64,000 nt of DNA from Escherichia phage PHB12: the sequence record MK524178.1. One strand, given 5' to 3'. The translations under genes and the position numbers were made by a program. The stretch's first letter is position 1, and each line of letters starts with the position of its first letter. Positions 19,859-39,831 of this stretch are shown in pieces. Below the pieces are notes generated by a model, which had not been told where the DNA came from, did not search any database, and was given only the letters and a program-made list of their open reading frames with translations.

Positions 19859-20674
19859 TTAACAATTTGTAGACCAAGTCCATTTAGACGAATCTAAAGG
19901 AAAGTTTTGAATCGTCCACCATGGCTGCATATCGGTTGGTCCTGGGGTTCGCCAGGTATACGGATTCGACGGACCGCCAATTTGATTAGGCCATGCACCT
20001 GGACTTGTTGTACCAGATTCTTTAAGCAAATCCGCCAATCGTTTTAAAAGGTCTTCACGATCTGAATCTGAATTATGCTCGGGTGGAACCAAACGAGATT
20101 CAATATCATCCCACGTGTGTACACGTTGTGCAGTACGAGGAATGGCATCACGTTCACCACGAGCCAACCAATAAATCGGTACATTAAGAATTTCTGCTGC
20201 ATGGTCACAGTGATGAGCTAAATCGTCAACGTAACAAATCACGTTATATTTTGTTTTAGCTAGTTCGAATAATTGTTCCTTTGAAGAATCATGACCACAC
20301 ATCATTACTTCAGAAAAGGCACCTGGGAACAAAGCATTCAAATTAAATTGTCTATTCAATCGAGCATCAATTGAATCACCTAGCGCCGTCACGGCTACAA
20401 AATTATAGTCTTCTTTTAATTTATTGATAACTCGAAGAGCATCCGAATAAGGCGCTAAGTAACGAATAAAATCAGAGCGATTATATTTTTCTATTAATTG
20501 TTTACCGAGGTTATCGTCGGTATTGAATAGTTTACCAGGAGAAATAAATTTTTCGTCCTGAATCATTTTTAAAATATGTTCTAATGGAAGATTATATTTT
20601 TGGGCAAAATAAGGAAGTCCAGATTGCCAGCTTAAACATACACCATCAATATCAGTCAAAATAGTAGGTTTCAT
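19859..20674 (-). CDS. HAD-superfamily hydrolase-like protein (30.2 position)
   Basis: 271 aa; N-terminal HAD motif I ILTDIDGV and later VDDLAHH; Trp/Pro-rich C-terminal tail. Confidence 0.65.
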   Translation of the reverse strand: MKPTILTDIDGVCLSWQSGLPYFAQKYNLPLEHILKMIQDEKFISPGKLFNTDDNLGKQLIEKYNRSDFIRYLAPYSDALRVINKLKEDYNFVAVTALGDSIDARLNRQFNLNALFPGAFSEVMMCGHDSSKEQLFELAKTKYNVICYVDDLAHHCDHAAEILNVPIYWLARGERDAIPRTAQRVHTWDDIESRLVPPEHNSDSDREDLLKRLADLLKESGTTSPGAWPNQIGGPSNPYTWRTPGPTDMQPWWTIQNFPLDSSKWTWSTNC

Positions 20675-21129
20675 AAAGAGTCTCTTAATAGGTTTAACAC
20701 ATCAATAAATTCAGCTTCGGTTAGTATTGTATCATCTTTTGTTAGGTGGCTGGCCATGCTGTGCTTCAAAATTTTTCCTTTAGAGGCTTGTAAGGCATCA
20801 CGAAACCCCTTGTTTTGGATCGCGGCTTCAAAATATGCATTTGTGTATAATTCTTTCCACGCTTCAGAGTATCTTGAAAATGGAACTCCTAACCAGAAGA
20901 GAGTTCCACGGTCCTGAGCTCTTGCATAAGACCTTCCAGCTTGCTGTGCAGCCAATCCAGACATCCCAAATATGCGTCTTTGCTGTTCAACATTTTTCAC
21001 CTTACATCCTTGGAGAAATCCTTCAAGTCCTCCGAATTGAATACCATCCATAACGAAAGGCCATTGAGCAAAGTTACTTAATGCACATGACGGCCATTTG
21101 AAATTGCTTCTTATTTCTAATTCAGACAT
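20671..21129 (-). CDS. NADAR (YbiA-like) domain protein (30.3 position)
   Basis: 152 aa from ATG (the track start at 21138 is GTG); LSNFAQWPFVMDG...EGFLQGCKV aligns with the YbiA FSNFAAWP...HYFQAQKF motif. Confidence 0.6.
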   Translation of the reverse strand: MSELEIRSNFKWPSCALSNFAQWPFVMDGIQFGGLEGFLQGCKVKNVEQQRRIFGMSGLAAQQAGRSYARAQDRGTLFWLGVPFSRYSEAWKELYTNAYFEAAIQNKGFRDALQASKGKILKHSMASHLTKDDTILTEAEFIDVLNLLRDSL

Positions 21130-21340
21130 CTTTAACACTTATAATTTCAACATCAGCCCAATGGCCGTATCCAGGTATACGGTCTTCGATAGATAAATTT
21201 CCATCATTTTTAGGCATTTTAATTGACGTAACGTATGGTTCTAAACGGTTTTCTGCATAATATGGAAAAACGTCTGTTACACGATAAGTAACTTCGATCA
21301 TTTCCGTACCTAATAATTTCTGAATCAATTTCTTAAGCAT
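21122..21340 (-). CDS. hypothetical protein (72 aa)
   Basis: ATG with SD GAGGA. Confidence 0.55.
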   Translation of the reverse strand: MLKKLIQKLLGTEMIEVTYRVTDVFPYYAENRLEPYVTSIKMPKNDGNLSIEDRIPGYGHWADVEIISVKDV

Positions 21341-21341
21341 A

Positions 21342-21536
21342 TTATCCTCGCTTTAAACATTTGATTACAGACAGTTCACCACCCATGCGAACGTCTTCAG
21401 TTCCATCGACCCATAAGACGGTGTAGGCTTCTTTAATAATAACATTACCTAATTTAAAAGCAGGTAGAACCTTTGAAATCATTCCAGGAATACCTACACC
21501 TTTTAACTGGACTGTTTGTGATAAGAATAGTTGCAT
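21342..21536 (-). CDS. hypothetical protein (64 aa)
   Basis: TAATG-coupled to the upstream ORF. Confidence 0.5.
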   Translation of the reverse strand: MQLFLSQTVQLKGVGIPGMISKVLPAFKLGNVIIKEAYTVLWVDGTEDVRMGGELSVIKCLKRG

Positions 21537-21823
21537 TAGAACCTCATCTGAAAGCCATGGGATTTAACATTACCACCATAGATGTCAGAGGTATTGACTT
21601 CACGGGCGACACTTGGGTCGATATTGATGTCACGGTTGAGCTTAGTGATTGCTAGGGTATCACGTCCATTAACAGTACGGAATTCTACCGGGCATACAAC
21701 ATCAGCATAAGCCTTAATAGATTCACGAGTAGGTTGTTTGTCGGCAGGAACATCTTTACCAGCTTTAGAGAAAACAACTTCACAGAAATTTTTACGAGTA
21801 TCAAAATAAGTGGTCATAAACAT
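21536..21823 (-). CDS. hypothetical protein (95 aa)
   Basis: Start set at ATG with SD GAGGA, downstream of a terminator hairpin that the longer track ORF would cross. Confidence 0.55.
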   Translation of the reverse strand: MFMTTYFDTRKNFCEVVFSKAGKDVPADKQPTRESIKAYADVVCPVEFRTVNGRDTLAITKLNRDINIDPSVAREVNTSDIYGGNVKSHGFQMRF

Positions 21824-21838
21824 AATATTTTCCTCAAA

Positions 21839-21854
21839 GGAGGCCGAAGCCTCC
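21839..21854 (-). terminator. hairpin terminator
   Basis: GGAGGC-TTCG-GCCTCC followed by TTTGAGG. Confidence 0.6.
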
Positions 21855-21864
21855 ATTTTTAAGA

Positions 21865-22230
21865 TTAGATATCAAATTCGTTAAGAACTACATCAAAGAT
21901 TGCTTCGAGATGTTCAGGTTTAGCTCGATTGCTCAGGATGTGACGAATCCAAGTTTTTACCAGAAGCTTACGATTAACACCGTTCCAGCAAGGATGGGTA
22001 CCTAAATTACGTTGACGGAAATCGTCATCTAATGCAATTTTGAAGTTGGAACCTTCCATCGTGATTGAAACCGTGATGCCATTTTCAAATCGCATATAAA
22101 CGTAATTAGGAGTCATATACTGCTCAATTTCGCATACTGAACCGTTATTATGCTTCCATAAGCAAATTGTATCGATAGAACCAGCAATACCGTTAGAAAC
22201 ATATTTACGTTCGAAGTTGATGTAGTTCAT
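21865..22230 (-). CDS. hypothetical early protein (121 aa)
   Basis: Preceded by an early promoter and SD GGAGAATAAA. Confidence 0.6.
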   Translation of the reverse strand: MNYINFERKYVSNGIAGSIDTICLWKHNNGSVCEIEQYMTPNYVYMRFENGITVSITMEGSNFKIALDDDFRQRNLGTHPCWNGVNRKLLVKTWIRHILSNRAKPEHLEAIFDVVLNEFDI

Positions 22231-22304
22231 TTTATTCTCCAGATGTTTAAGTTGTTTGTTGGTACAGGTCTATAATAACAAAACCTGTACCAAAGTAAAC
22301 ATTT

Positions 22305-22676
22305 TTATTTGATTTTTGTCCACTTAGCTGAATCAATAACACCTTTTGCTTTAATCTTCTCGATTAATGTCTCTGCGCGATTTCTGGCATTTTCGTACCA
22401 TACAACATCTTCAGAGTAACCAGTTTCTTCATCTTCGTAAGTTTTAGAACGAATACAACCATAAACTGTAGAATTCAGACGGTAAATTTCACCAGTGAAA
22501 AAGTTTTCGATTTCGATATGATAACAAAAATCGTCTGAAGGGCCATCAGGAGTTGTACAATAAACTACATCACCTTGAACCGAACGAACCATCCACTGTA
22601 ACTCGTTAACAACTTGAGATTTATATCCATCATGGTCACGGCATTTAATTGTAGCATTTAAATTGATAGTGTTCAT
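22305..22676 (-). CDS. hypothetical early protein (123 aa)
   Basis: Preceded by a near-identical promoter/SD module. Confidence 0.6.
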   Translation of the reverse strand: MNTINLNATIKCRDHDGYKSQVVNELQWMVRSVQGDVVYCTTPDGPSDDFCYHIEIENFFTGEIYRLNSTVYGCIRSKTYEDEETGYSEDVVWYENARNRAETLIEKIKAKGVIDSAKWTKIK

Positions 22677-22774
22677 TTTATTCTCCGGTTGTTTTATTGA
22701 TTAGGTAGTACAAGTCTATAGTAACACATCCTACAGGAGAGTAAACATCTTTTTAAACTTTTTCTGCCCTAAAC

Positions 22775-22800
22775 GCACAAAAGGGAGACCGAAGTCTCCC
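22775..22800 (-). terminator. hairpin terminator
   Basis: GGGAGAC-TTCG-GTCTCCC followed by TTTTG. Confidence 0.75.
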
Positions 22801-22805
22801 TAAAA

Positions 22806-22985
22806 TTATGCAACAACCTTTCCAAAACGAGAAGCATCATCTCGAAGAACTGCACGTGCTCTGCGCATGATCTTCTCAACTGTTTGATTAATACGAGAGT
22901 TCGACCCACGCTTGTATCCAGCGCGTTTAGAGGTACCATCAACTTTCTTTTCAACTGCTTTCTTTGCTTTAGCTTGTTTTGCCAT
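22806..22985 (-). CDS. small basic protein (59 aa), not in supplied ORF track
   Basis: MAKQAKAKKAVEKK...; ends just before the terminator hairpin, unlike the overlapping 61-aa track ORF. Confidence 0.5.
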   Translation of the reverse strand: MAKQAKAKKAVEKKVDGTSKRAGYKRGSNSRINQTVEKIMRRARAVLRDDASRFGKVVA

Positions 22986-23249
22986 TATAAATTCTCTTTA
23001 AATGAAAATGCAGGACTTATTGACATTGCCTGCGCAAGCCCTCAAGGGGAACATAGGTTTCGGATATTTAACGACAGGATAACTATAAACCTCGTCATCA
23101 TACCGACCACGACTTAGACAGATAACCTTTTTCTGACGCGTGATAGTACAAAATACATTCAAGAGGTACACCGTAAAATTGTTGGGGTCTTAAAACTATA
23201 ATGATTCGCAAATCATTAATCAGACAATTCGACGGCTCCTCGATTTAAC

Positions 23250-23498
23250 TTACTTAAGGGTAATAACAAAATGACGAACTGCTTTACGTGCGGCAGAAGC
23301 CAGAGGCTTAGCATATTTCAATTCATCTTTAGCTTCCAGTTCAGCGGCCAAAGAAGCCTGAGCAGGATTCAGATGTTTGAAATAACGCAGGATTTCAAGA
23401 GCTTCGGCTTCAACATCAATGGATGCACCATAGTTTTCATGACCGTTATTCCATGCGTTGCGTTGCAGTTCAAGAGCGTGTTGTAATTGTTTAATCAT
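23250..23498 (-). CDS. rIII: rIII lysis-inhibition accessory protein (probable)
   Basis: 82 aa, immediately downstream of gene 31 as in T4; late promoter upstream. Confidence 0.75.
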   Translation of the reverse strand: MIKQLQHALELQRNAWNNGHENYGASIDVEAEALEILRYFKHLNPAQASLAAELEAKDELKYAKPLASAARKAVRHFVITLK

Positions 23499-23614
23499 TT
23501 TAAAGTCTCAATTCGAGATAATATTTAGTAGCCACGTTCGTCTGAATTTCACCTTCTTTCGACAAGTCTCTCAGTTGTAGGCTACCGCTTAGAAGAGTGT
23601 TCTCTTCATATAGT

Positions 23615-23622
23615 TATTTATA
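23615..23622 (-). promoter_or_regulatory. late promoter (TATAAATA, minus strand) upstream of rIII
   Basis: Exact match immediately after the gene 31 stop. Confidence 0.6.
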
Positions 23623-23955
23623 TCACTTATAAAGGCACGGAATAGCTTTATAGTGGCATGTTACGAATTTCTGTTTAATTTCTTTAGGTTGTTTAAGACC
23701 TAAAGCCACAAATGGATGCGGAACATTTCGAATTTGTCCAACTGGTAGTGGAGTCAAATCACCGACTTCAACAAAACCTTCAGGAACATCAGGACCTACA
23801 GAATGAACTACACATAGTTCAGGAACTTCACCTTGAACACGTTTACCAATCACAAGTCCTGATTCGGTAACTTCTTCATCACCTGCTTGAGCTGGTTCAG
23901 AAACCAGAATGACATATTCACCAACAGCACGAATTGGGAGTTGTACTTCAGACAT
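23623..23955 (-). CDS. 31: co-chaperonin gp31 (GroES-like)
   Basis: 110 aa; matches T4 gp31 length and position. Confidence 0.92.
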
Positions 23956-23985
23956 CTTATTTCCTTGTTGTTTGACGATAGATTA

Positions 23986-24010
23986 ATAATACCATACTAT
24001 TCGTAAAGCA
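23986..24010 (-). promoter_or_regulatory. MotA-dependent middle promoter for gene 31
   Basis: Minus strand tATGCTTTA - 12 nt - TATTAT. Confidence 0.6.
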
Positions 24011-24012
24011 TA

Positions 24013-24321
24013 TTACATAAGAAGCAAACGTTCTACCGGAGTACCATCAACTGAAATTACTTTATCAAGGCGGAAAGAACGCCACTGACCTAACTTGGTG
24101 TCGAATGCTCGAACTGATTCACGAGGTTCATAACGAACTTCTGTTGCCGGATTGTTATTTTCATATTTGACTTCAAGTTCATCGCGCGAAGCAAACATAG
24201 TGCGTACCTCGCCGTTAGCCTTTTCAAATACAACACAATGAACGCCTACAGACAGAATAGTTTTAATACGTTCACGAAGAACCATAGTTTCTTGTTCAGT
24301 TAAAATCATATTATTCACCAC
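24013..24321 (-). CDS. hypothetical protein (102 aa), 31.1 position
   Basis: ORF between cd and gene 31. Confidence 0.65.
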   Translation of the reverse strand: MVNNMILTEQETMVLRERIKTILSVGVHCVVFEKANGEVRTMFASRDELEVKYENNNPATEVRYEPRESVRAFDTKLGQWRSFRLDKVISVDGTPVERLLLM

Positions 24322-24892
24322 AAAAGTTTCGGATTTGTTCCCAATTCAGAGAACGAAGATTATTGCGAGAGTACTGAATTACTTCAATACCGGCTTGTTT
24401 TAGAATGTCTGCCCAATTTTCAGGAGATCGATCATATAATTCTGCGTATACAACCTTTTTAATACCTGACTGCGTAATAGCTTTAGTGCAATCAGGACAT
24501 GGAGAAAGTGTCGTATATAATGTAGCACCTTCAATAGAATTACCTTTACGAGCTGCAAACAAAATTGCATTCAATTCTGCATGGATTTCGTTATTAGCAG
24601 ACCATGCACTATGAGCCGCTCGATGTTCTTTAGCCAAAACAAAATTATCTGCCCGTCCAAATGCTGTAGTGCCTTCTTTATGGCCAGCAACGATGACCGG
24701 GCTTGGTTTATTCTTCAACCAACCATTTTCAGATGCATGTTCACAACAGTTAACGCCACCGGCCGGTGAACCATTATATCCAGTAGAGATAATGCGTCCA
24801 TCTTTTTCAATGACGGCACCAACTTTCCATGAACAACATTTTGATTCTTGAGAAATCAAATAAGCAATTTGAAGATATGTGCTAGCTTTCAT
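24311..24892 (-). CDS. cd: dCMP deaminase
   Basis: 193 aa; zinc-binding HAELNA and SPCPDC motifs; matches T4 Cd. Confidence 0.94.
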   Translation of the reverse strand: MKASTYLQIAYLISQESKCCSWKVGAVIEKDGRIISTGYNGSPAGGVNCCEHASENGWLKNKPSPVIVAGHKEGTTAFGRADNFVLAKEHRAAHSAWSANNEIHAELNAILFAARKGNSIEGATLYTTLSPCPDCTKAITQSGIKKVVYAELYDRSPENWADILKQAGIEVIQYSRNNLRSLNWEQIRNFCGE

Positions 24893-25884
24893 TATTGAAC
24901 CTTATTAATATAAGTTAACAGCTCTTTAGTTTGTTCCCAACTGATGCACGCATCGGTAATGGAAACGCCATAGGACATATTATCAGAAATTTTTTGATTT
25001 CCTTCATGTAGGAATGATTCTATCATAATTCCTTTGACCAAATCATTAGCTGCTAAATTTTTACCAATACCAATTTGATTGCTATAATACCCATCAGCGT
25101 TTGCATGGCTACAGTCAACCATTACATAATGATTCAGACCTAATGCACTTGCTTTGTTAGAAGCTTCTTGAATATCAGAAGAATGATAGTTCGGGCCGTT
25201 AGTCCCGCCACGCAATACGATATGCGTATTCTGATTACCTTCAGCTTCAACAATGCCTACAGTACCATCGACATCCATACCCATATACCGATGAGGCCAG
25301 GCGGCACTATACATCGCGTCTGTAGCTACTTTAATAGAACCATTGGTTGCGTTCTTGAAGCCTACGCACATCGGTAGACCTGAAGCAATTTCACGATGTG
25401 TCTGACTTTCAGTCGTACGGGCGCCAATAGCAACCCATGAGAAAATACCAGAAAGATACTTAATCGTGAATGGGTCTAATACTTCAGTTGCTAATGGAAG
25501 TCCCATACGTAGAAGTTTACGACACAATGTTCGTGCAACTATAAGACCGTGGTTCATATCAAAACTTCCGTCAAGATATGGATCATTTACAAGACCTTTC
25601 CAACCTACGGTAGTTCGAGGCTTTTCAAAATAAACGCGCATCACTAACAGAACATTAGGAAGACGAGTTTGAAGTTCAGCCAGACGTTTGCCGTATTCAA
25701 CAGCAGCAATAGGGTCATGAATTGAACAAGGACCTACAACAATAAGTTTGCGTGGGTCTTCACCGTTCATAATCGAATTAACTTGTTCGCGATGAGAAGC
25801 CACTTGTGATGCGTAAGCTTCTGACAAAGGAATAATCTCAGCCAGTTCTTTTGGAGAAATAAGTTTTCTGACGACAGGTAACAT
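24892..25884 (-). CDS. 3-deoxy-7-phosphoheptulonate (DAHP) synthase, class I (AroF/G/H-like)
   Basis: 330 aa; VVGPCSIHDP, MRVYFEKPRTTVGWKGL, AIGARTTESQTHRE; SD TAAGGA; stop overlaps the cd start. Confidence 0.88.
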   Translation of the reverse strand: MLPVVRKLISPKELAEIIPLSEAYASQVASHREQVNSIMNGEDPRKLIVVGPCSIHDPIAAVEYGKRLAELQTRLPNVLLVMRVYFEKPRTTVGWKGLVNDPYLDGSFDMNHGLIVARTLCRKLLRMGLPLATEVLDPFTIKYLSGIFSWVAIGARTTESQTHREIASGLPMCVGFKNATNGSIKVATDAMYSAAWPHRYMGMDVDGTVGIVEAEGNQNTHIVLRGGTNGPNYHSSDIQEASNKASALGLNHYVMVDCSHANADGYYSNQIGIGKNLAANDLVKGIMIESFLHEGNQKISDNMSYGVSITDACISWEQTKELLTYINKVQ

Positions 25885-26004
25885 AACAATCCTTAGGAGA
25901 TATAAAAAGATTCTGATTCAACAATACCTTTAACCGGATTAGACAGGCTAAGTTGGTAGTGCTCAGATTTATGACCATTCTCGATAGTAATGAGATAGCT
26001 CTCA

Positions 26005-26241
26005 TTATAGTGTTCCATATACTCGAGTTGCTTCAACAAGACCATCACTGCCTAATTTAAGATTAGTAATTTGGTCACCATCTTTAGGATTAACGATTAT
26101 GAGAAAAGAACGTGGAGATTCTTGAATAACTCGTAATGTTGCATCCTGGAAACGTTCAGACACTTTATTGATGAGTGCTTGAGCGAATTCTTTTACTTTA
26201 ATCTGAAATTCGTGTACTGTAATTGGATTTTCACTTAGCAT
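26005..26241 (-). CDS. hypothetical protein (78 aa)
   Basis: ORF preceded by an early promoter (GTTTAC...TACGAT) and SD GAGGA. Confidence 0.55.
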   Translation of the reverse strand: MLSENPITVHEFQIKVKEFAQALINKVSERFQDATLRVIQESPRSFLIIVNPKDGDQITNLKLGSDGLVEATRVYGTL

Positions 26242-26298
26242 TTCGATTTCCTCATTTTGGTTAGAGACATCGTATCACAACTCTACTGTGTTGTAAAC

Positions 26299-26574
26299 TT
26301 AAATTGCAAAACATTTAATTTCTTGTGAATCGAAATCAACTTCACATTGAATTACTAGATCAGCGTCAAGTCCAAACACAACAATCACATGAGCCGAGCT
26401 TGGCAACAGTGTAACAGACACAGAATCCACTTGGTCGGGCACCAGCGTATTCAAAACGTAGAGTAGTTCAGAGTGAATCTTAAGCTCGGTGGCCGTATCC
26501 GGCTTATCAAAGAAATGATTTGCGATAATCTGGCTAAAAACGACCTTTACAATTTCAGAATATTTAGGGAACAT
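26299..26574 (-). CDS. hypothetical protein (91 aa)
   Basis: ORF in cd-pseT interval. Confidence 0.55.
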   Translation of the reverse strand: MFPKYSEIVKVVFSQIIANHFFDKPDTATELKIHSELLYVLNTLVPDQVDSVSVTLLPSSAHVIVVFGLDADLVIQCEVDFDSQEIKCFAI

Positions 26575-26581
26575 AATTACC

Positions 26582-26806
26582 TCAGTGTACAGTATTTACT
26601 TTAACTCGAACAACAAATTGCTCGGTCGGTTCGCCTACAGGAACAAACTCTACATGATATTCGCCTTTGTAACGAGTATTCAAGTCGTTACGAATTTCAG
26701 TAAGCTTGTTGATTAATGTAGAACTCATATTAAGTCCCACTAGTTTACGAAGCATTTTGTATGCTTCATCTTCGATTTCATGATGTTTATCGTACATAGT
26801 TTTCAT
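26582..26806 (-). CDS. hypothetical protein (74 aa)
   Basis: ORF in cd-pseT interval. Confidence 0.5.
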   Translation of the reverse strand: MKTMYDKHHEIEDEAYKMLRKLVGLNMSSTLINKLTEIRNDLNTRYKGEYHVEFVPVGEPTEQFVVRVKVNTVH

Positions 26807-26977
26807 TTAACCATTCAATTGCCTGGTCGACGTTATCAAATATACTGCCGTCCAAACGTTCTTCATGCTCATAGTCCAGCACATCAATACCGAACTGTCC
26901 ATTTACTAAAGGCCAGGCTACAAACAAATATTCTTTATGCTGTTCGATGGCCTCAATCACTTCATATAATCGTTTCA

Positions 26978-26978
<1 letters not shown>
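26787..26978 (-). CDS. hypothetical protein (63 aa)
   Basis: ORF immediately downstream of pseT. Confidence 0.5.
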
Positions 26979-28064
<1,086 letters not shown>

Positions 28065-28065
<1 letters not shown>

Positions 28066-28364
28066 TATTTTATTCCTAAGAAAGTTTCAAGAATACGAAT
28101 GTTATGCTCGCGCCGGTCTTTATTAATTTCAGCAACGTTTTTATTAATTGACGTACTTCTAACGTTTGAAGAAATAAATTTAATCATATGACTTTTGAGT
28201 TGTTGCAAATCCAGCCCTTTTTCTTTAGCAGCTTTACGAAGAGCTTTACCTGCTTTATCTAGTGCCTTTGCTGCATCTTTGTCATAATTGACAAGTGACA
28301 TTCCGTGGCAGATATCAATATACTCATCAGATCGTTTGATGTAAGTCTCTAGTAATGTTTTCAT
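28065..28364 (-). CDS. hypothetical protein (99 aa)
   Basis: ORF with an early promoter upstream. Confidence 0.55.
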
Positions 28365-28392
28365 TTAGATTTCCTCAATTATCCATAGGAGC

Positions 28393-28422
28393 ATTATACT
28401 CTGCTCCCGAGAGTTTGTAAAC
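28393..28422 (-). promoter_or_regulatory. early promoter inside a stem-loop
   Basis: Minus strand GTTTAC - 18 nt - TATAAT; -10 flanked by inverted repeat GGAGCA/TGCTCC. Confidence 0.65.
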
Positions 28423-28646
28423 TATTTTACTAAAGATTCGATATACTCATGAAGAGCTTTAGTTGCTACTGCCCACTTATTCTGATATTCATTTTTCAGA
28501 TTAGCACGAGACTGAACTAACAAGCGGTCATTAGTCGGAGGCAAAGATTCTAATCGTTGAATCTGACGGCCATAAATCATAGCCGCCATTTCAGAGTCAT
28601 AGATAAGTCCTTTAAGGTATTCATGCTGTTCTTTAGTCATTGACAT
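28422..28646 (-). CDS. hypothetical protein (74 aa)
   Basis: ORF upstream of the spanin pair. Confidence 0.55.
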   Translation of the reverse strand: MSMTKEQHEYLKGLIYDSEMAAMIYGRQIQRLESLPPTNDRLLVQSRANLKNEYQNKWAVATKALHEYIESLVK

Positions 28647-28927
28647 TTTTCCTCTTTTAAACCACTACGATAATAACATATCATAGTCTTCTGGTCATGT
28701 ACATATCTTTTTACGTCGTTTAACCAGATACGAAATTCTTGAGAGTCTTCAAACGGCATTCCAACCCACGGATTACCATCAATAACCTTTACTTGCCATT
28801 TCTGGTTATATTCACCAATAGATTCAGGCCATGGCGGATGTAAAGTTTCTTTAGGGCTTAAGGGCACATCCTGGGCACATCCGGTTAAAATGCCAATAGA
28901 TAATACAACTGCGGTTAATTTAATCAT
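28637..28927 (-). CDS. o-spanin (outer-membrane lipoprotein, Rz1-like; PseT.2 position)
   Basis: 96 aa; signal peptide with lipobox ILTGC, Pro-rich mature part, C-terminal Cys. Confidence 0.7.
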   Translation of the reverse strand: MIKLTAVVLSIGILTGCAQDVPLSPKETLHPPWPESIGEYNQKWQVKVIDGNPWVGMPFEDSQEFRIWLNDVKRYVHDQKTMICYYRSGLKEEKCQ

Positions 28928-29280
28928 TCTGAGAGCTTCCTGAGGTCTTCTGCAAAGGAATCGAAGGACCTGTTGATTTGTTTTTCGACCAATCCTGGTT
29001 TACTTGCCACCACGTTCTTCTTCTTCGAATCCTTACGGAGCTTTTCATTTTCGGCCTTAAGTTGGTCAACTAAAACACGGTTCTTATAAGTCATTTCTTC
29101 GATTGACTGATATTGAACCTTGAAGTCGTCTAATACTTTAGCATTGTTTTTAGCGGTCTCTTTGACAGAAGCTAATTCAGTATTCAACGAATCAACTTTG
29201 TTGTTTAAGACAACTATTGTTACCGTAGAAACTAGAGCAAAAGCCGCTACTATAGCATAAATCGGATTTACTTTAAGCAT
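28924..29280 (-). CDS. i-spanin (inner-membrane, Rz-like; PseT.3 position)
   Basis: 118 aa; N-terminal TM helix then coiled-coil; 4-nt overlap with the o-spanin gene. Confidence 0.7.
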   Translation of the reverse strand: MLKVNPIYAIVAAFALVSTVTIVVLNNKVDSLNTELASVKETAKNNAKVLDDFKVQYQSIEEMTYKNRVLVDQLKAENEKLRKDSKKKNVVASKPGLVEKQINRSFDSFAEDLRKLSE

Positions 29281-29768
29281 GTTTTAATAATCTCAATGAT
29301 TTCATCTCGGGATAATCCATTGATAAGAACGGTTTTAGGACCATCACACTGGATTTTGTACGATTCAAACAATACACACAACTCTTCTGCTGTATGATAC
29401 GGACTTGAAATTCCGAGGCGGTTGAATTTGTCGGTAAGAGGGTCGCAAATAATGTAGAATTTTATACCTGCGATATGTACGTTTGGTTGACTAATATTAA
29501 TGAACACATTAGCGTCATATTTAGTCAAATTGTTTTGAAGAAATTCTACCATGGCATTAACTGCTTCTGGCATCGCTTCACGTTTCTCTTCAGCGTAACG
29601 TGTTGAATATTCCTTTTGCTTTAACTTCTTTTTAAGATTTTTGGCCAGTGTAACACGTAGGTCAGTAAGATAACCAACTGGACGTCCTTTCTTAAAGACT
29701 CGGATTCCATCTGTAGAATCACCAAATGCTGCCACAACCATATCGTTAGTAATCAATTGCATATTCAT
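29268..29768 (-). CDS. alc: Alc (transcription terminator on C-containing DNA), probable
   Basis: 166 aa from internal ATG with SD GAGGAG; position between rnlA and the spanins as in T4. Confidence 0.75.
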   Translation of the reverse strand: MNMQLITNDMVVAAFGDSTDGIRVFKKGRPVGYLTDLRVTLAKNLKKKLKQKEYSTRYAEEKREAMPEAVNAMVEFLQNNLTKYDANVFINISQPNVHIAGIKFYIICDPLTDKFNRLGISSPYHTAEELCVLFESYKIQCDGPKTVLINGLSRDEIIEIIKTCLK

Positions 29769-29798
29769 AATTTTCTCCTCGTGATGTTGATAAAAGCT

Positions 29799-29828
29799 AT
29801 AGTAACACCATCCTTGGTGTTTGTAAAC
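29799..29828 (-). promoter_or_regulatory. early promoter upstream of alc
   Basis: Minus strand GTTTAC - 18 nt - TACTAT. Confidence 0.55.
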
Positions 29829-29830
29829 CA

Positions 29831-30964
<1,134 letters not shown>

Positions 30965-30980
30965 TCAGTTAGTTTTTTAA

Positions 30981-31010
30981 ATTGTACCACAATCCTTGTG
31001 GCGTGTAAAC
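30981..31010 (-). promoter_or_regulatory. early promoter upstream of rnlA with palindromic spacer
   Basis: Minus strand GTTTAC - 18 nt - TACAAT; spacer contains CCACAAGGATTGTGG. Confidence 0.6.
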
Positions 31011-31420
31011 TACTTTTTCTTATGTTGGATATTCCAAGGCGGGTTGAACTTTTTGATAAAAAGCGGTTCTTCAAGGTCCATTGTTGCGATAGTCATTGAA
31101 CCAAGTTCGTTGGTGACTGAAAGGTCAAAACATTGGCGGGCCCAGAATTCAACCTTTTTGCCTTGCATTAAGGCATCCAAAATCATAAGTGATTTTCTTG
31201 AATCTGAAGTCTGGTCTTTTCGATTTATGGCTGTTCGATAATAGTTAATGCGTTTCTTTAAATTCTTGGTTTTACCAATATACACAAGCTCGTCATCTAT
31301 AGCAATAGCGTATATGACATTTTTCTTATTAGGGACATCAACTGTTTTAATTGTTGCATCTTCTAATAGCTCCAATTCTGTATATTTAATAAAGGAATAT
31401 TCGGCGGCAATATCTTTCAT
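31010..31420 (-). CDS. denA: endonuclease II (GIY-YIG family)
   Basis: 136 aa; near-identical to T4 DenA (VIYAIAI..ELVYIGKTKNL.KRINYYR ... NPPWNIQHKKK). Confidence 0.93.
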   Translation of the reverse strand: MKDIAAEYSFIKYTELELLEDATIKTVDVPNKKNVIYAIAIDDELVYIGKTKNLKKRINYYRTAINRKDQTSDSRKSLMILDALMQGKKVEFWARQCFDLSVTNELGSMTIATMDLEEPLFIKKFNPPWNIQHKKK

Positions 31421-31442
31421 AATAAAGTGGGACCGAAGTCCC
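31421..31442 (-). terminator. hairpin after nrdB (terminator or attenuator)
   Basis: GGGAC-TTCG-GTCCC followed by TTTATT, immediately before the denA ATG. Confidence 0.55.
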
Positions 31443-31446
31443 GTCC

Positions 31447-32622
31447 TTAGAAATATTTTTTGTATGAATTGATTACATTTTGGTCTACATCATTATCAAT
31501 TTGTGCGACAAGATAAGAACTGATTTCAACTTCCTGAGGAGCTGCTTGAACTAAATCAGAGTTCAGATATTCACGAATCCAAGGATACGGATGCTTGGTC
31601 GGAGCATCAGTGATTGGGCATGGCAAACCACACTGTTTCATACGAGACACAGTCAAGTAATCAACAAAAGCACACATACTCTGCGTATTGATACCTGGAC
31701 ATGTACCATCTTTAAAGAGGTGTGCAGCCCATTCCTTCTCTTGACTATTTACTTCCATAAAAATGTCAACTGCTTCTTGTTCACATTCTTTAGCAATTTG
31801 AACCCACTCATCACCATCAGTACCAGATTGAAGTTGACGGATAATGTACTGAGTACCCTTGAGGTGGAGTTGTTCGTCACGAGCAATGAACTTCATAATC
31901 TTTGCATTACCTTCCATAATTTCCATATTTTTATGGAAGTTGAAAGTACATGCAAATGATACGTAAAAACGAATAGCTTCTAAGGCGTTGATAACATGTA
32001 AACAGAGATAAAGAGACTTCATTAAATCACGCTTGGTGTTAAACATTATTTCTTCGTACATCTCAATATCATTCTGCTGGCATGAGCCTATTGAACACTC
32101 ATAATCTTCCTTAGCATTTTCCCAATGACGAGTCTTGACTAGAACATCATCGTAATATTTACCTATTGATTCAGCTCGTTTCATGATTGCTTCGTCTAAT
32201 ACAATCTCATCAAATACTTTGGATGGATCGGTATAAAGATTTCGCATAATATGAGTATACGAACGAGAGTGAATAGTTTCACTGAATGTCCATGTTGCAA
32301 CCCATGTATCTAATGAAGGGTCAGAAATCAGTGCCATAAGTACAGCAGATGGGGCCCTGCCTTGGATAGAATCCAATAATGATTGATACTTAAGATTGTT
32401 TGTAAAGATGTCCTGTTGGAACTGAGGAAGCTTATTGAACTGCGCAGAGTCCAACATCAAGTTTACCTCTTCAGGGCGCCAGAAAAATGACAAGGATTTT
32501 TCTATAAGTTCTTCAAAAACTTTATGACGCTGAATATCGTAACGTGCGAGACCAAGACCAGAACCAAAGAACATCGGTTCATTCAAAACATCGACTTGTT
32601 GTGTGTTAAAAACTGTACTCAT
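31447..32622 (-). CDS. nrdB: ribonucleotide reductase beta subunit (intron-less)
   Basis: 391 aa continuous ORF; di-iron RNR small-subunit motifs. Confidence 0.96.
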   Translation of the reverse strand: MSTVFNTQQVDVLNEPMFFGSGLGLARYDIQRHKVFEELIEKSLSFFWRPEEVNLMLDSAQFNKLPQFQQDIFTNNLKYQSLLDSIQGRAPSAVLMALISDPSLDTWVATWTFSETIHSRSYTHIMRNLYTDPSKVFDEIVLDEAIMKRAESIGKYYDDVLVKTRHWENAKEDYECSIGSCQQNDIEMYEEIMFNTKRDLMKSLYLCLHVINALEAIRFYVSFACTFNFHKNMEIMEGNAKIMKFIARDEQLHLKGTQYIIRQLQSGTDGDEWVQIAKECEQEAVDIFMEVNSQEKEWAAHLFKDGTCPGINTQSMCAFVDYLTVSRMKQCGLPCPITDAPTKHPYPWIREYLNSDLVQAAPQEVEISSYLVAQIDNDVDQNVINSYKKYF

Positions 32623-32675: not shown

Positions 32676-34931
32676 TTAAAGCTTACAAGCAGAACAATCT
32701 TCAGCTTTAGGTGTTTCTAATTCGTAGTCATCTGTACCTGACCCGTCGCGAGTGTTATGATAGTAGAGATTTTTTCCGCCAAAGTACCAGAAGTAAAGCA
32801 GATCGTCAAGCATTACTGACATTGGCACTTTACCTTTCTCAAATACTGCAGGGTCATAGTAAGTATTAGCAGAAGCAGATTGGCATACCCATTTCAACAT
32901 GATAGCAACTTGGGTCAAATAAGGTTTATTACCTTTCTTAGCAAGTTTCCACGCGTAGTCGTAAAGACCCATGTTATGTTCTATATTAGGAACAACCTGA
33001 CGGAAGTTGCCTTCTTTAGATTCTTTAATACTTACTGGGCCGCGTGGGGGCTCAATCCCGTTTGTAGAGTTTGATACTTGACTGCTTGACTCACAAGGCA
33101 TGAGTGCAGACAACGTTGAGTTACGAATTCCGTGTTCTTTGAGTTCAGCTCGAAGTTCTTCCCAGTCACAGACGTAGTTCGGGGCTGCAATTTGGTCAAT
33201 CTTTTTATTGTACCAGTCGATAGGTAATTCGCCTCTAGACCATTTAGTGTCTGAATAATACTCGCAACATCCTTTTTCTTTGGCGAGTTTGATTGAAGCT
33301 TTGATAAGGCCATATTGCAATCTCTCAAACAATTCATGAGTCAAATCGTTAGCGTCTTCATATGAAGCAAAGTTAGAAGCTAACCATGCAGCATAGTTCG
33401 TCACACCGACACCGAGATTTCGTCGCTTTTTAGCTTTTAAAGCTTCTGGAACCGGATAATCTTGATAGTCTAACAGGTTATCAAGTGCACGTACTTGTAC
33501 TTCAGCAAGTTCATTAATTTTATCTTGGTCTTGCCAATCAAATTTATCTAATACAAAAGCAGATAACGTGCATAAACCAATTTCAGCATCAGGACCATTC
33601 ACATCATTAGTTGGAATAGCGATTTCACAACATAAGTTACTCTGACGAATTGGAGCTTTTTCACGAATAAACGGAGTGTAGTTATTCGTGTTATCAACAA
33701 ACTGTGGATAAATTCGAGCAGTACCAGAACGTTCAGTCATGAACAATTCAAAGAGTTCTAGTGCTTTGATTCTTTTCTTTCTGATTGTTGGGTCTTTTTC
33801 AGCTTTCTCATAAAGCTCACGGAATTTATCTTGATCTTCAAAGAATGAGTAATATAGTTCGCCTGACATTTCGTGAGGGCTAAATAAAGTAATATAATCA
33901 TTTTTACCAAGGCGTTCCATCATAAGGTCATTAATCTGAATTCCGTAGTCCATATGTCGAATACGGTTTTCATCCACACCTTTGTTATTTTTCAGAACTA
34001 ATAGGTTCTCTACTTCTAAGTGCCACATCGGATAATACGCTGTAGCAGCACCACCACGAATACCGCCTTGAGAACAAGATTTTACTGCGGTTTGGAAATG
34101 TTTCCAGAATGGAATAACACCTGTATGTCGAACTTCACCCGTACCGATCTTAGAACCTTCTGCACGAAGCATACCAACGTTGATACCGATACCAGCTCGT
34201 TTAGAAATATATTCAATAATTGATGCTGAAGTTTTGTTAATAGATTTTAACGAATCACCGGCTTCAATAACTACACAACTAGAGAACTGGCGAGTTGGAG
34301 TACGAGCACCTGCCATAATTGGGGTTGGCAATGAAACTTGATGAGTAGAAACGGCATCATAAAAACGAATAATATGTTTCAAACGGTCATGAGTTTCGTC
34401 TTGGTGTAAGGCCATGCCAATAGCCATGATAGCAAACTGTGGAGTTTCATAAATCTTCCCAGTTGTTTTATCTTTAACTAGATATTTTTCTTTAAGCTGC
34501 ATAGCACCAGCATAAGTCAGGTCAAAGTCTCGTTCATGTTTAATCTGTGAATCTAGATAAATGATTTCTTCTGCCGAATATTGAGACAACAGCTCAGGGT
34601 CGTATTTGCCTTCATTAACACAGTAAGAAATATGGTCGATAAAAGCAGGCGGTTCAAACTGCCCATATACATCTTTACGAAGTGCAAACATTAGCCCTTT
34701 GGCAGCGACATACTGATAATCAGGTTCTTCGACAGAAATCAAGTTAGCTGCAACTTTAATACAAATCTTCTGAATATCTTTGGTGCTCATCCCGTCAACA
34801 AGATGGGTCTTAATTTCTTCGTACAATTCATATGGGTCAATTTGTGTTCCTTCACACTGCCAAGTTAAGACTTGAATAATTTTCTGTGCATCAAAATTTT
34901 GGGATACCCCACTGCTCTTAGTTACTTGCAT
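32676..34931 (-). CDS. nrdA: ribonucleotide reductase alpha subunit
   Basis: 751 aa; class Ia RNR large subunit; C-terminal CxxC tail. Confidence 0.96.
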   Translation of the reverse strand: MQVTKSSGVSQNFDAQKIIQVLTWQCEGTQIDPYELYEEIKTHLVDGMSTKDIQKICIKVAANLISVEEPDYQYVAAKGLMFALRKDVYGQFEPPAFIDHISYCVNEGKYDPELLSQYSAEEIIYLDSQIKHERDFDLTYAGAMQLKEKYLVKDKTTGKIYETPQFAIMAIGMALHQDETHDRLKHIIRFYDAVSTHQVSLPTPIMAGARTPTRQFSSCVVIEAGDSLKSINKTSASIIEYISKRAGIGINVGMLRAEGSKIGTGEVRHTGVIPFWKHFQTAVKSCSQGGIRGGAATAYYPMWHLEVENLLVLKNNKGVDENRIRHMDYGIQINDLMMERLGKNDYITLFSPHEMSGELYYSFFEDQDKFRELYEKAEKDPTIRKKRIKALELFELFMTERSGTARIYPQFVDNTNNYTPFIREKAPIRQSNLCCEIAIPTNDVNGPDAEIGLCTLSAFVLDKFDWQDQDKINELAEVQVRALDNLLDYQDYPVPEALKAKKRRNLGVGVTNYAAWLASNFASYEDANDLTHELFERLQYGLIKASIKLAKEKGCCEYYSDTKWSRGELPIDWYNKKIDQIAAPNYVCDWEELRAELKEHGIRNSTLSALMPCESSSQVSNSTNGIEPPRGPVSIKESKEGNFRQVVPNIEHNMGLYDYAWKLAKKGNKPYLTQVAIMLKWVCQSASANTYYDPAVFEKGKVPMSVMLDDLLYFWYFGGKNLYYHNTRDGSGTDDYELETPKAEDCSACKL

Positions 34932-35227
34932 ATGTCCTCTATATTAAATTCATCTTTAAAAAGTTTATTAACCACTAGAGCTATTATATCACCATGACAG
35001 GCTTTTGGTTTACATGTGCATCCTAATCGCATCCCACGTAAAGGTTCAAGATGAGCTTTTGTGATTTCTCCACTTCTAATTCTTTTAATAAAATCCTTTT
35101 TGAAAAGCTCAATAGCTTCTTCTCGAGAAGAGGCATCCTTGCCTACATAATTTCCCCAGAATGTGCCACGATGAATATTAACATCAAAATCTGATTTGTA
35201 TTTATTCACTACGCGGCATATTTTCAT
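34922..35227 (-). CDS. hypothetical protein (101 aa), nrdA.1 position
   Basis: ORF overlapping the nrdA start. Confidence 0.65.
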   Translation of the reverse strand: MKICRVVNKYKSDFDVNIHRGTFWGNYVGKDASSREEAIELFKKDFIKRIRSGEITKAHLEPLRGMRLGCTCKPKACHGDIIALVVNKLFKDEFNIEDICK

Positions 35228-35445
35228 GTTACGTCAACCTCAAACCAACAGTCATAAACATTATCCAAAAGATTATGCTTATTATATTCATACACCTTTG
35301 TAACAGAGAGAACTCTCTCTTCAAAGCCGTCAACATTAATTGTCTCAGTTTTAATAGGGAGCTCAAGAGGATTAGCATTATAAAGTTCAGCTAACACCTT
35401 TTTACTACCATGTCCTTTACGAACAATACGAATATTGATACCCAT
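35224..35445 (-). CDS. hypothetical protein (73 aa)
   Basis: ORF, 4-nt overlaps with neighbours. Confidence 0.5.
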   Translation of the reverse strand: MGINIRIVRKGHGSKKVLAELYNANPLELPIKTETINVDGFEERVLSVTKVYEYNKHNLLDNVYDCWFEVDVT

Positions 35446-35693
35446 TAGTTACGTTCCAATTCTTCGTATTCTTTAGGTGTCAAGACTGTGATATCGAAAT
35501 AAACCAACGGTTCTTTTTCTATACCGTAACCACCACAAAATTCACGATATTCATAAATTCGTTCATGTGAATAGCAAATGAATCGTTCACCTTTAACTGT
35601 GATTTCACTATTCGGTGAAGGGATATCCAGTTCGGTAGGATTTTTCATTTCAAAAATTGTGGTGCCATATGAATTAATAAAACGTAAAATCAT
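35445..35693 (-). CDS. hypothetical protein (82 aa)
   Basis: ORF immediately downstream of td. Confidence 0.5.
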   Translation of the reverse strand: MILRFINSYGTTIFEMKNPTELDIPSPNSEITVKGERFICYSHERIYEYREFCGGYGIEKEPLVYFDITVLTPKEYEELERN

Positions 35694-36554
35694 TTATACC
35701 GCCATTTTAGCTTTGATAGTTGGATGAGATTCGTAATTTTTAAGAACGAAATCAGAATGTGTCATCGTTCCAGTAACCCAGTCCATTTGGATTTTTGTAG
35801 GCCAATTCTCAAAATTACTAGGCCAATTAATTTCAAGAGAACATAACTCTTTAGGTTCACGACGAAGAACTTCTTTGCATTGCTCTACATGATTGCTGTA
35901 GATATGCGTATTGCCGCCTGAGAACACTAAATCACCTGGGATAAGGTTACACATCTTCGCTACAATATGCGTCAAGGCAGCGTACGAGGCGATGTTGAAC
36001 GGCAGGCCCAAGAAAACATCTACACTGCGTTGATACCATTGTAAATCAAGATGTCCATTACGCACATTAAATTGATAGAACATATGACAAGGAGGAAGAG
36101 CCATTTGGTCAATTTCGGCAGGGTTCCATGCAGAAACTATTTGTCGACGATCATTAGGAAGAGCTTTAATACGGTCGATAGTTTTGACCAATTGGTCTAC
36201 ACCACCAAAATCACGCCATTGCTTACCATAAATAGGACCAAGTTCGCCGCTATGATATCCAAGGTCTTTTGCCTGATTTTCGTAGTTATCGTCCCAAATA
36301 GTTTTACCTTGAATAAGACTACCATGAGTACGAATACGCAAATCATTAACATTGGTAGAACCAGACATGAACCATAATAGCTCTGCAATACAAGCTTTCC
36401 ATGCTAATTTCTTAGTTGTTACTGCAGGAAATCCTTTAGTAAGGTCCCATCGCAATTTAGTTCCGAATAGAGCAATAGTGCCGGTACCTGTACGGTCGTC
36501 TGTTTCGTAGCCATTTTCTAAGATATCTTTAATCAAATCTTGATATTGTTTCAT
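35694..36554 (-). CDS. td: thymidylate synthase (intron-less)
   Basis: 286 aa continuous ORF; active-site region ALPPCHMFYQF. Confidence 0.96.
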   Translation of the reverse strand: MKQYQDLIKDILENGYETDDRTGTGTIALFGTKLRWDLTKGFPAVTTKKLAWKACIAELLWFMSGSTNVNDLRIRTHGSLIQGKTIWDDNYENQAKDLGYHSGELGPIYGKQWRDFGGVDQLVKTIDRIKALPNDRRQIVSAWNPAEIDQMALPPCHMFYQFNVRNGHLDLQWYQRSVDVFLGLPFNIASYAALTHIVAKMCNLIPGDLVFSGGNTHIYSNHVEQCKEVLRREPKELCSLEINWPSNFENWPTKIQMDWVTGTMTHSDFVLKNYESHPTIKAKMAV

Positions 36555-36569
36555 TTAACACCTATATAA

Positions 36570-36917
36570 TCAATACGGTTTAGCATCAAATTTTCTTTCG
36601 ATTTCAGGCGTGAAATATAGTTCTTTACCACGCTTAGAAAAGCGACCGATAATATGATAATTATTTTCGTCGAATGTGATATTACCGAGGTCCATAGCTT
36701 TTAACCAATCATCAATACTTCTGTGCAGTTTTATATCAAAATTCCAGTATTGAGAACTATTACCACGGATACTACAAGCAGATTCGGTAAAACAACTACT
36801 ATAAATCTTGTCTTTAGGAACTACTAATTGATAGACGCCTTTAATAAACTGAGGACCTTGCCACTTTGGCTGTTTCGCATCTTCTTCTAATAGAATAGGG
36901 TAATAATTAAAATTCAT
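36570..36917 (-). CDS. hypothetical protein (115 aa) inserted between frd and td
   Basis: ORF filling the frd-td junction; ATG start 20 nt after the frd stop (the track start at 36929 is GTG); no recognisable motif. Confidence 0.55.
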   Translation of the reverse strand: MNFNYYPILLEEDAKQPKWQGPQFIKGVYQLVVPKDKIYSSCFTESACSIRGNSSQYWNFDIKLHRSIDDWLKAMDLGNITFDENNYHIIGRFSKRGKELYFTPEIERKFDAKPY

Positions 36918-36937
36918 ATTTTCCGCCACGTGTTATT

Positions 36938-37767
<830 letters not shown>

Positions 37768-37775
37768 ATTATCTC

Positions 37776-38902: not shown

Positions 38903-38925
38903 CAAAAGGGAGACCGAAGTCTCCC
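38903..38925 (-). terminator. hairpin terminator after gene 32
   Basis: GGGAGAC-TTCG-GTCTCCC followed by TTTTG. Confidence 0.8.
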
Positions 38926-38931
38926 AATTTA

Positions 38932-39831
38932 TTATAGACCAGCTAACAGGTCATCGAGGTCGCCATCGTCAGAAGACGAGGAACTCATGAAGTCATCTTC
39001 AGTTTTTGCAGAACTAAAGGCTTCCATGTCTTTATCAAAATCGTCAAGGTCAGAAGCAACTTTATCTGCAACAGAAGCTGCTGCGGCTGCTGCACCACCA
39101 AGAGCGGCAGTACCAAGAACTTGATTAAATTTAGTATTCAATTCTTCAAACGATTTGAACTTATCTTTAGAAGTCATTTCAGAAAGGTCAACCATTTGTT
39201 CGAACAATTCTTTCTGGAAAGATTCATCATCAATGTTTGGAATCGCAGATTGATTCAGGAATTTAGATTCGTCGTAGTTACTAAAACCAGAAACCTGTTT
39301 AACTTTCAGCACAAAGTTAGCACCTTCCCATGGGCAAGTTACATCAACGGGAGTTTCACCCATTTCAGTATCGACTGCAATCATTGCATTGATTTTGTCC
39401 CAAATCTTTTTACCAAAACGGTATTTGAATACTTTACCTTCATTATCTGGAGCTTGTGGGTCTTTAACAACCAGGATATTAGCCCAATAAGAAGTTTTAC
39501 GTTTCAGTTGAGAATATTCTGTTTTGTTTGTATTGTACAGATCATTTTTACTAATGTACTGACATACCGGACAAGAGTCATAATCGCCGTGTGTAGATGA
39601 ACAGGTTTCAATATACCATTTACCGTTTTTCTTGAACCCGTGGTTAACAAGAATTGCAAACGGAAGTGCGTCATCTGTTTTTGCCGGCAGGAAACGAATT
39701 ACCGCTTGACCATTACCGGATGCATCGAGTTTCAGCTTCCATTCACCTTTATCTTCTGAAGAGAAACCTTTGTTACCATTCAGTTTAGCCATCTGAGCTG
39801 CGAGGTCTGCGGTACTTTTACGTTTAAACAT
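38932..39831 (-). CDS. 32: single-stranded DNA-binding protein gp32
   Basis: 299 aa; zinc-binding region ([14 protein letters not shown]), acidic C-terminus; matches T4 gp32. Confidence 0.96.

Follow-up and report, generated by a model that had tools for sequence, protein, structure and literature searches.

We analyzed a 64,000-nucleotide (nt) stretch of the genome of Escherichia phage PHB12 (sequence record MK524178.1; referred to below as the window), in which a small open reading frame (ORF) lies between the dihydrofolate reductase (DHFR) gene frd and the thymidylate synthase (TS) gene td. This ORF is td.1, and it is nearly certain that it represents a genuine and conserved gene, already annotated but uncharacterized. 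It is known as a hypothetical gene from hundreds of T-even genomes, is named td.1 in the record of phage T2H (AY262132.2; protein ABI48932.1), and appears as RB32ORF229c in RB51 and RB14. The three genes are all encoded on the minus strand, and the interval is laid out as follows (aa, amino acids).

36938-37522, minus strand: frd (dihydrofolate reductase; 194 aa), a Tequatrovirus/T2-type allele, placed by its ORF and start context
36933-36944, minus strand: left copy of a direct repeat (TAAATGAAAtAA), including the frd stop codon (TGA, 36940-36938), located by repeat search and T4/T2H alignment
36918-36937, minus strand: 20-nt leader of T2 type (AATAACACGTGGCGGAAAAT) with a weak Shine-Dalgarno-like GGCGGA
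36570-36917, minus strand: td.1 coding sequence (115 aa plus stop), a match to PHROG 1928, with a predicted small beta-barrel resembling the oligonucleotide/oligosaccharide-binding (OB) fold
36555-36569, minus strand: 15-nt spacer (TTATATAGGTGTTAA) bearing the td Shine-Dalgarno sequence AGGTG
36546-36557, minus strand: right copy of the direct repeat (TAAATGAAAcAA), including the real td start codon
35694-36554, minus strand: td (thymidylate synthase; 286 aa), intronless, with its ATG at 36554, an RB69/Mosigvirus-type allele

The true start of frd reads MIELVF (compare MIKLVF in T4). At td.1, the longest ORF call spans 36570-36929 (119 aa from a GTG at 36929); the ATG at 36917 is the start shared with all td.1 homologs and, with the TGA stop at 36572-36570, yields a protein of 115 aa. 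The first-pass annotation, made from the sequence without database searches, had described a tightly packed 115-aa ORF on the strand of its neighbors, separated from the frd stop by 20 nt and from the td ATG by 15 nt, and both distances proved exact (36918-36937 and 36555-36569). Its statement that the ORF lacks a promoter and a terminator of its own stands for the signals scanned: between 36555 and 36960, the minus strand gave no sigma-70-like promoter and neither strand showed a terminator-like hairpin, with MotA-type middle promoters lying outside the formal scan. The closest match to the late promoter sequence TATAAATA is ~3 kb from td.1, and there is none nearby. In this respect, td.1 does not resemble a moron or other mobile cargo gene, which would bring its own promoter and terminator.

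Conservation and genomic context of td.1

The window ORF matched PHROG 1928, a family annotated as being of unknown function, at an E value of 9.2e-36 (residues 4-111 against profile positions 2-125 of 126), and a family hidden Markov model (HMM) built here scored it at 1.1e-26. The first-pass annotation had recognized no motif in the protein, and the other collections searched (i.e., Pfam, NCBIfam, PADLOC, and Protein Data Bank [PDB] sequence profiles) gave nothing meaningful. Pfam gave no match to the window protein even at E values up to 10 and nothing meaningful for sets of 24 and 62 family members, with no family recurring among the 62. Nothing meaningful was obtained for td.1 from NCBIfam or the PDB profiles, and no PADLOC family matched td.1 or three of its relatives at an E value of 1 or lower. 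Homologs were detected by tblastn in 581 of 50,697 phage records. Thirteen records show at least 99% aa identity (e.g., phage PTK, whose protein is 100% identical to that of the window), 349 show 90 to 95% identity (including T2, RB phages, and many other Tequatroviruses), and 219 show less than 60% identity (T4-like phages of Klebsiella, Enterobacter, Proteus, Kosakonia, and Serratia); 362 records thus reach at least 90%. An exhaustive HMMER search of 1.84 billion representative proteins returned only a small, phage-restricted family of 48 clusters at 50% identity, with protein-level homologs reaching down to ~17 to 25% identity while keeping the invariant residues. All clusters are single-domain proteins of 95 to 150 aa, apart from one false positive (P0052, a repetitive surface protein of 3,337 aa). 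Applied to the rest of the window and to 8 kb of T4 sequence surrounding frd-td, the family HMM revealed no td.1 paralog. Literature searches for td.1 and RB32ORF229c found no paper discussing the gene, and searches on the deoxynucleoside triphosphate (dNTP) synthetase complex were likewise fruitless. The T2 record is cited solely for nrdB by Wilson and Edgell (2009; PMC2790892), and a review by Edgell (2010; PMC2988022) does not mention td.1.

td.1 is an old and widely conserved resident of the frd-td interval. Of 16 contexts, which cover eight named genera (i.e., Jiaodavirus, Kanagawavirus, Gelderlandvirus, Muldoonvirus, Winklervirus, Marfavirus, Mosigvirus, and Tequatrovirus), 15 have a homolog immediately 3' of frd or separated from it by one paralog; wherever the sequence extended far enough to tell (13 contexts), td followed downstream. 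All annotated records examined share this arrangement. Metagenomic relatives (down to ~17 to 25% identity) keep the frd-td.1-td order, with two contigs ending before td; in the lone exception (P0022), other genes precede the homolog, which lies at a contig end. In genera other than Tequatrovirus and Mosigvirus, adjacent genes share 1 to 20 nt (ATGA, TAATG, and similar), and such overlapping stop and start codons are a classic layout for translational coupling. Most of the other genera carry a second, tandem paralog between frd and td, recognized by both the family HMM and PHROG 1928 and designated td.1b here, which has an N-terminal insertion of ~25 aa (PTIxxYKRNP) after the conserved Trp. Among the loci compared, td.1b occupies L004 2817-3176, L005 2809-3156, L007 2814-3188, L008 2790-3143, L010 3332-3673, L011 3344-3688, and L020 2612-3004.

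The T4 reference has a 4-nt overlap of frd and td (ATGA) and no intervening ORF, as the first-pass annotation had stated, and RB69 likewise has the ATGA overlap and no td.1. The first-pass annotation had named a conserved ORF at this site of the T4 reference as a refutation of its reading, and T4 has none. This junction is a minority state, and T4 is an unrepresentative reference at frd-td. We surveyed the junction with an 86-nt T4 probe in 60 of 501 matching records, taken at even steps down the ranking. The probe sequence was split by ~400 nt of td.1 in 36 of the 60, a further 13 showed the end of frd followed by a hypothetical protein, and only 4 (~7%) had the contiguous T4-type junction, 2 of them being T4 itself. 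The gene is found in most Tequatrovirus records, and its presence is polymorphic within both Tequatrovirus and Mosigvirus. Given the 15 of 16 contexts above and the rarity of the T4-type junction, the earlier description of a cargo gene dropped into the thymidylate operon was not borne out.

The PHB12 window itself is a mosaic; the phage is a Mosigvirus, and its frd allele is of Tequatrovirus type. Over positions 20000-32000, the sequence shares 98% identity with phage SF, which is a Mosigvirus in the NCBI taxonomy. The td and nrdA.2 genes are 96.9% identical to those of RB69 at the nucleotide level, versus 78 to 80% for T4/T2H, and td.1 is 99% identical to the allele of SF, NHEP36, and Shf125875 (i.e., the Mosigvirus allele). 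On the other side, frd is 90 to 98% identical per 100-nt block to that of FL34 and only 52 to 71% identical to that of RB69. Within the region compared (35460-37770), frd, the 20-nt leader, and ~250 nt 5' of frd are of Tequatrovirus type, and the homology breakpoint relative to NHEP36 falls exactly at the td.1 ATG (36917). Shf125875 (Mosigvirus utam) shows the same mosaic. The T2H protein is encoded by the same gene in the same frd-td position, has the same length (115 aa; 93.9% aa identity), and follows the same 20-nt T2-type leader; the window differs in carrying the Mosigvirus allele, which is 81 to 95% identical to T2H per 100-nt block.

The Mosigvirus allele (window, NHEP36, and Shf125875) and the Tequatrovirus allele (T2H, FL34, HP3.2, and ESh24) were compared by the Nei-Gojobori method. 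For td.1, nonsynonymous divergence (dN) was ~0.03 to 0.04 and synonymous divergence (dS) was 0.6 to 1.1 (dN/dS, ~0.04 to 0.05). The corresponding values, in which dS above 2 is saturated, were ~0.14 (T2H versus Mosigvirus-type td), ~2.1 to 2.4, and 0.06 to 0.07 for td and ~0.4, 1.5 to 2.9, and 0.15 to 0.25 for frd. The low ratio indicates that td.1 is a functional coding gene constrained as strongly as thymidylate synthase. Since the two td.1 alleles (dS, ~0.8) diverged more recently than the genes flanking them in these genera (dS, above 2), td.1 appears to have been exchanged between Mosigvirus and Tequatrovirus after their split.

Predicted fold and possible roles of Td.1

The AlphaFold2 (AF2) model of the window protein, built on a 24-sequence alignment, had a mean predicted local distance difference test score (pLDDT) of 82 and a predicted template modeling score (pTM) of 0.78. 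It places strands at residues 8-12, 27-34, 38-40, 48-50, and 62-64, a helix at 68-77, and further strands at 80-82, 86-96, and 99-104. A model of the paralog P0006 (td.1b; pLDDT, 90.6) has the same core, and both independent models follow a beta-beta-beta-helix-beta-beta order. The predicted fold is probably an OB-fold-like beta-barrel. Its predicted order of beta1-3, helix, and beta4-5 matches that of known OB domains (i.e., SSB, PriB, the DNA-binding domains [DBDs] of RPA, the DnaE OB domain, the MCM N-terminal OB domain, and the AsnRS anticodon-binding domain), and ~60 to 72 residues of the model superpose on such domains at ~3 Å. Unlike these domains, with which it has no sequence similarity, the Td.1 model has extra short strands, and no oligomerization or C-terminal acidic tail features were seen in Td.1.

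Among 62 family members, W19, G91, K95, and G97 are invariant and L9, G27, Y29, F93, and F102 are nearly so; the 24-sequence alignment adds Q16, K63, and R92 to the nearly invariant positions. The window protein contains the entire family signature (W19, G91, K95, G97, Y29, F93, and F102, including the GRFxKxG hairpin motif). Judged from the alignments, the conserved set (W, Y, F, K, and G) is not of catalytic type. Read from strand positions rather than coordinates, these aromatic and basic residues would lie on L12, beta2, beta3, and the beta4-beta5 hairpin, the usual ligand face of OB folds. The family is mildly basic (median isoelectric point, 8.6).

On the basis of these features, we tentatively regard td.1 as a translated accessory gene of the frd-td (thymidylate cycle) operon that encodes a noncatalytic, OB-fold-like binding protein made with Frd and Td, a reading to which we give a little less than an even chance. 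Translational coupling would tie the production of Td.1 to that of Frd and Td, and the protein would adopt a noncatalytic OB-fold-like beta-barrel. We hypothesize from the model that its ligand may be either a single-stranded nucleic acid or a protein partner from the thymidylate/dNTP synthesis machinery. It would then act as a dispensable modulator or tether rather than as an enzyme, its dispensability following from the absence of td.1 in T4 and RB69. The link to nucleotide metabolism, which the first-pass annotation had raised, is the best-supported functional hint, and its whole basis is the conserved neighborhood.

Several observations weigh against this reading. Searches of Pfam, NCBIfam, and PDB profiles gave no sequence-level tie from td.1 to any characterized family, and the net charge of Td.1, only ~+1 to +2, is weak for a dedicated nucleic acid binder. 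T4 and RB69 grow well without td.1, and Frd and Td are almost unchanged between relatives with and without the gene, so Td.1 is not an obligatory subunit. Since gene order is generally conserved in T4-like phages, the neighborhood is a weaker sign of physical interaction than it might appear, and the surface exposure of the invariant aromatic residues is suggested by strand positions only.

How the dNTP synthetase complex is coupled to the replisome is an old question in T4 biology. A bolder form of the accessory-gene reading would make Td.1 the third component of a phage thymidylate cycle module (DHFR-Td.1-TS), i.e., an adaptor with an OB fold that links DHFR to TS or anchors both to single-stranded DNA (ssDNA) or gp32 at replication forks, and that was overlooked because T4 and RB69 lost the gene. 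We consider this speculative and distinctly unlikely; if true, Td.1 would offer a direct handle on that coupling. As a discovery, td.1 is minor, since the gene is already annotated and named. Its TS-like constraint, its position between DHFR and TS, and its predicted OB fold make it a reasonable and cheap target for studies of phage nucleotide metabolism or of its coupling to replication.

Alternatively, Td.1 may be a host-directed or antidefense effector (e.g., one acting as an inhibitor or decoy against an ssDNA-sensing defense, a host nuclease, or a dNTP-depleting enzyme) that rides in the early frd-td transcript. We regard this as unlikely. The protein is small, dispensable, encoded in an early operon, and patchy within genera; its family is phage restricted (48 clusters among the 1.84 billion representatives), and the ages of its alleles relative to their flanks (dS of ~0.8 versus above 2, the latter saturated) imply lateral exchange. 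However, a dN/dS of ~0.04 is unlike that of arms-race genes, and the adjacency to DHFR and TS has been kept over very deep divergence, while neighboring small ORFs vary. No PADLOC match was found, although PADLOC models defense and not antidefense, and the literature searches found nothing. The selfish or defense-related insertion that the first-pass annotation had proposed has no support: there is no PADLOC match and no nuclease motif, a profile comparison with I-TevI (hhalign) gave a probability of 0.9%, and purifying selection is very strong, unlike that in an arms race.

Origin of the presence/absence polymorphism

Alignment of the frd-td region with T4 and T2H defined an indel bounded by a 12-nt direct repeat, TAAATGAAA(t/c)AA, whose two copies flank td.1 at a spacing of 387 nt and are identical at 11 of 12 positions. 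The left copy holds a two-codon relic, ATG-AAA-TAA (36941-36933), similar to the beginning of td, ATGAAACAA. T4 and RB69 have the same flanking genes, exactly one repeat copy, and no td.1; their junction sequence, TATAAATGAAACAATA, is present in the window, split into the two copies around td.1. In the Mosigviruses SF and NHEP36, which lack the 20-nt T2-type leader, an RB69-type frd overlaps td.1 by ATGA (TATAAATGAATTTT). The frd genes of RB69 and NHEP36 are nearly identical (dS, 0.06), and a precise 363-nt td.1 block between TAAATGAA repeats is missing in RB69. The patchy distribution and boundary direct repeats expected of a moron or mobile cargo gene are present, both in RB69 versus NHEP36/SF and in T4 versus T2. 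Because the 8- to 12-nt repeat contains the stop/ATG overlap, deletion or insertion through microhomology would leave a functional and perfect frd/td ATGA junction, which explains the clean presence/absence polymorphism of td.1.

Ancestral presence of td.1 with recurrent loss is the more economical reading of this polymorphism, given that the slot is occupied across the subfamily and that the Mosigvirus allele has no near-identical Tequatrovirus donor. A secondary reinsertion in Tequatrovirus is possible, since the T2-type leader retains a td-like relic (10 of 12 positions identical to the td start).

The opposite scenario appears improbable. In it, frd and td would ancestrally have overlapped, td.1 would have entered their junction recently as cargo in one lineage, and its homologs would reflect repeated capture at the same site. 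The left flank ATGAAATAACAC shares 10 of 12 positions with the td start ATGAAACAATAC, as a target site duplication would; T2-type junctions have real spacers (20 nt; 15 to 45 nt), while the genes overlap in other genera; and allele age points to exchange between genera. However, the distribution of the gene contradicts this scenario. The td.1 of the window is 99% identical at the nucleotide level to that of its Mosigvirus relatives, where it occupies the same place, and the same slot is filled in eight named genera and in distant metagenomic phages, mostly with translational coupling; T4-like junctions are rare. In addition, TAAATGAAA occurs seven times in the window. Judged by its form, a stop codon and then ATGAAA, it may be a gene junction motif; should that be so, the repeat would carry less weight as a sign of duplication.

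A free-standing or degenerate homing endonuclease, whose own nuclease activity would explain the mobility of td.1, is highly improbable and has effectively been refuted by the sequence comparisons and the predicted fold. Like td.1, the GIY-YIG homing endonucleases of T-even phages (i.e., I-TevI and the Seg proteins) are small phage genes found patchily near td; td.1 is also flanked by direct repeats, and four records from BASEL and Klebsiella phages (MZ501047, MZ501113, MZ501067, and OR271596) label it accordingly. By eye, "GVY...IYSS...R...EIERKF" in the window protein (GVYQLV in full at its start) resembles GIY-YIG. This candidate identity was rejected, since the YIG-, Arg-, and Glu-like positions vary in the family alignments (e.g., R51 of the window is F in T2H), leaving only G-[IV]-Y conserved among the motifs. 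The family profile matched I-TevI with a probability of only 0.9% in hhalign, and no Pfam match was seen at E values up to 10. GIY-YIG enzymes differ further in their GIY-YIG/Arg/Glu set, their predicted fold, and their DNA-binding domain: the predicted OB-like barrel of Td.1 would be neither a GIY-YIG alpha/beta fold nor an HNH fold, and its 115 aa include no DNA-binding extension. Finally, FL34 and ESh24 carry td.1 alongside the td intron and I-TevI, and nothing suggests that these compete.

To the idea that the ORF is untranslated (i.e., spurious or purely an RNA-level spacer between frd and td), which the weak Shine-Dalgarno GGCGGA of the window might favor, we give practically no credence in the face of a conserved frame (dN/dS, ~0.04 at a dS of ~0.8), protein homologs down to ~17 to 25% identity with invariant residues, confident AF2 models, and a start codon that overlaps the frd stop in other genera.

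The label "putative homing endonuclease" is carried by BASEL and ValerieMcCarty04 phages (the four records above), and "putative glucose-1-phosphate adenylyltransferase" is applied to td.1 of pSe_SNUABM_01 and SF2-1; together with MN580668 and PQ571308, the four records make up the mislabeled set. Neither label finds support in our analyses, and both represent errors that are spreading between records.

The presence of td.1 and that of the td intron are independent. Loss of td.1 by coconversion during homing of the td intron/I-TevI was ruled out as an explanation, since FL34 and ESh24 have td.1, the intron, and I-TevI together. A td gene split by an intron and an I-TevI-like gene was seen in FL34, ESh24, and Proteus phage ABTNLPp2, all of which carry td.1; ABTNLPp2 combines both td.1 paralogs with the split td and a homing endonuclease gene. 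HP3.2 has td.1 and a split td with no annotated endonuclease gene. The split td genes lie at L012 1897-3314, L014 2073-3718, L013 1894-3074, and L005 3153-5026.

The spacer between td.1 and td is 15 nt in the window (36555-36569) versus 45 nt in T2H (L002 387-431), which has an extra 30 nt (TAGCTTCATAAAATGTATTATAATTTATATA). By eye, the extra segment of the T2-type phages contains a MotA box-like AGCTTCA followed 10 nt later by TATAAT and may be a middle promoter of td; the window and its Mosigvirus relatives lack it.

Neighboring genes and other features

Other small ORFs occur close to td in the relatives. A separate family of 68- to 70-aa ORFs (MSNKLKVKDVP...YSWM[HD]; L006 2806-3018 and L008 3148-3354) lies just 5' of td in Muldoonvirus and Marfavirus and overlaps the td start. 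A 69-aa ORF occupies the same spot in a metagenomic contig (L010 3670-3879) and, judged by position, may belong to this family. In two distant T4-like phages, a 183- to 185-aa ORF lies directly 5' of td (L017 3869-4426 and L020 3905-4456) and matches PHROG 4806, "histidyl tRNA synthetase" (E values, 4e-64 and 6e-51), a label that looks doubtful because of the size of the proteins.

Elsewhere in the window, a perfect 7-bp GC-rich hairpin (stem GGGAGAC/GTCTCCC, loop TTCG; 38908-38925) with T-runs on both strands lies just 3' of gene 32 (38932-39831, minus strand) and resembles a bidirectional intrinsic terminator. Between td and nrdA (34922-35693) there are three small ORFs on the same strand (82, 73, and 101 aa). 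The 82-aa ORF falls within the RB69-like segment (td plus nrdA.2, ~97% identity), and the 101-aa ORF overlaps the nrdA start; in contig L010, the ORF at the equivalent spot just 5' of nrdA has a Pfam match to DUF4326.
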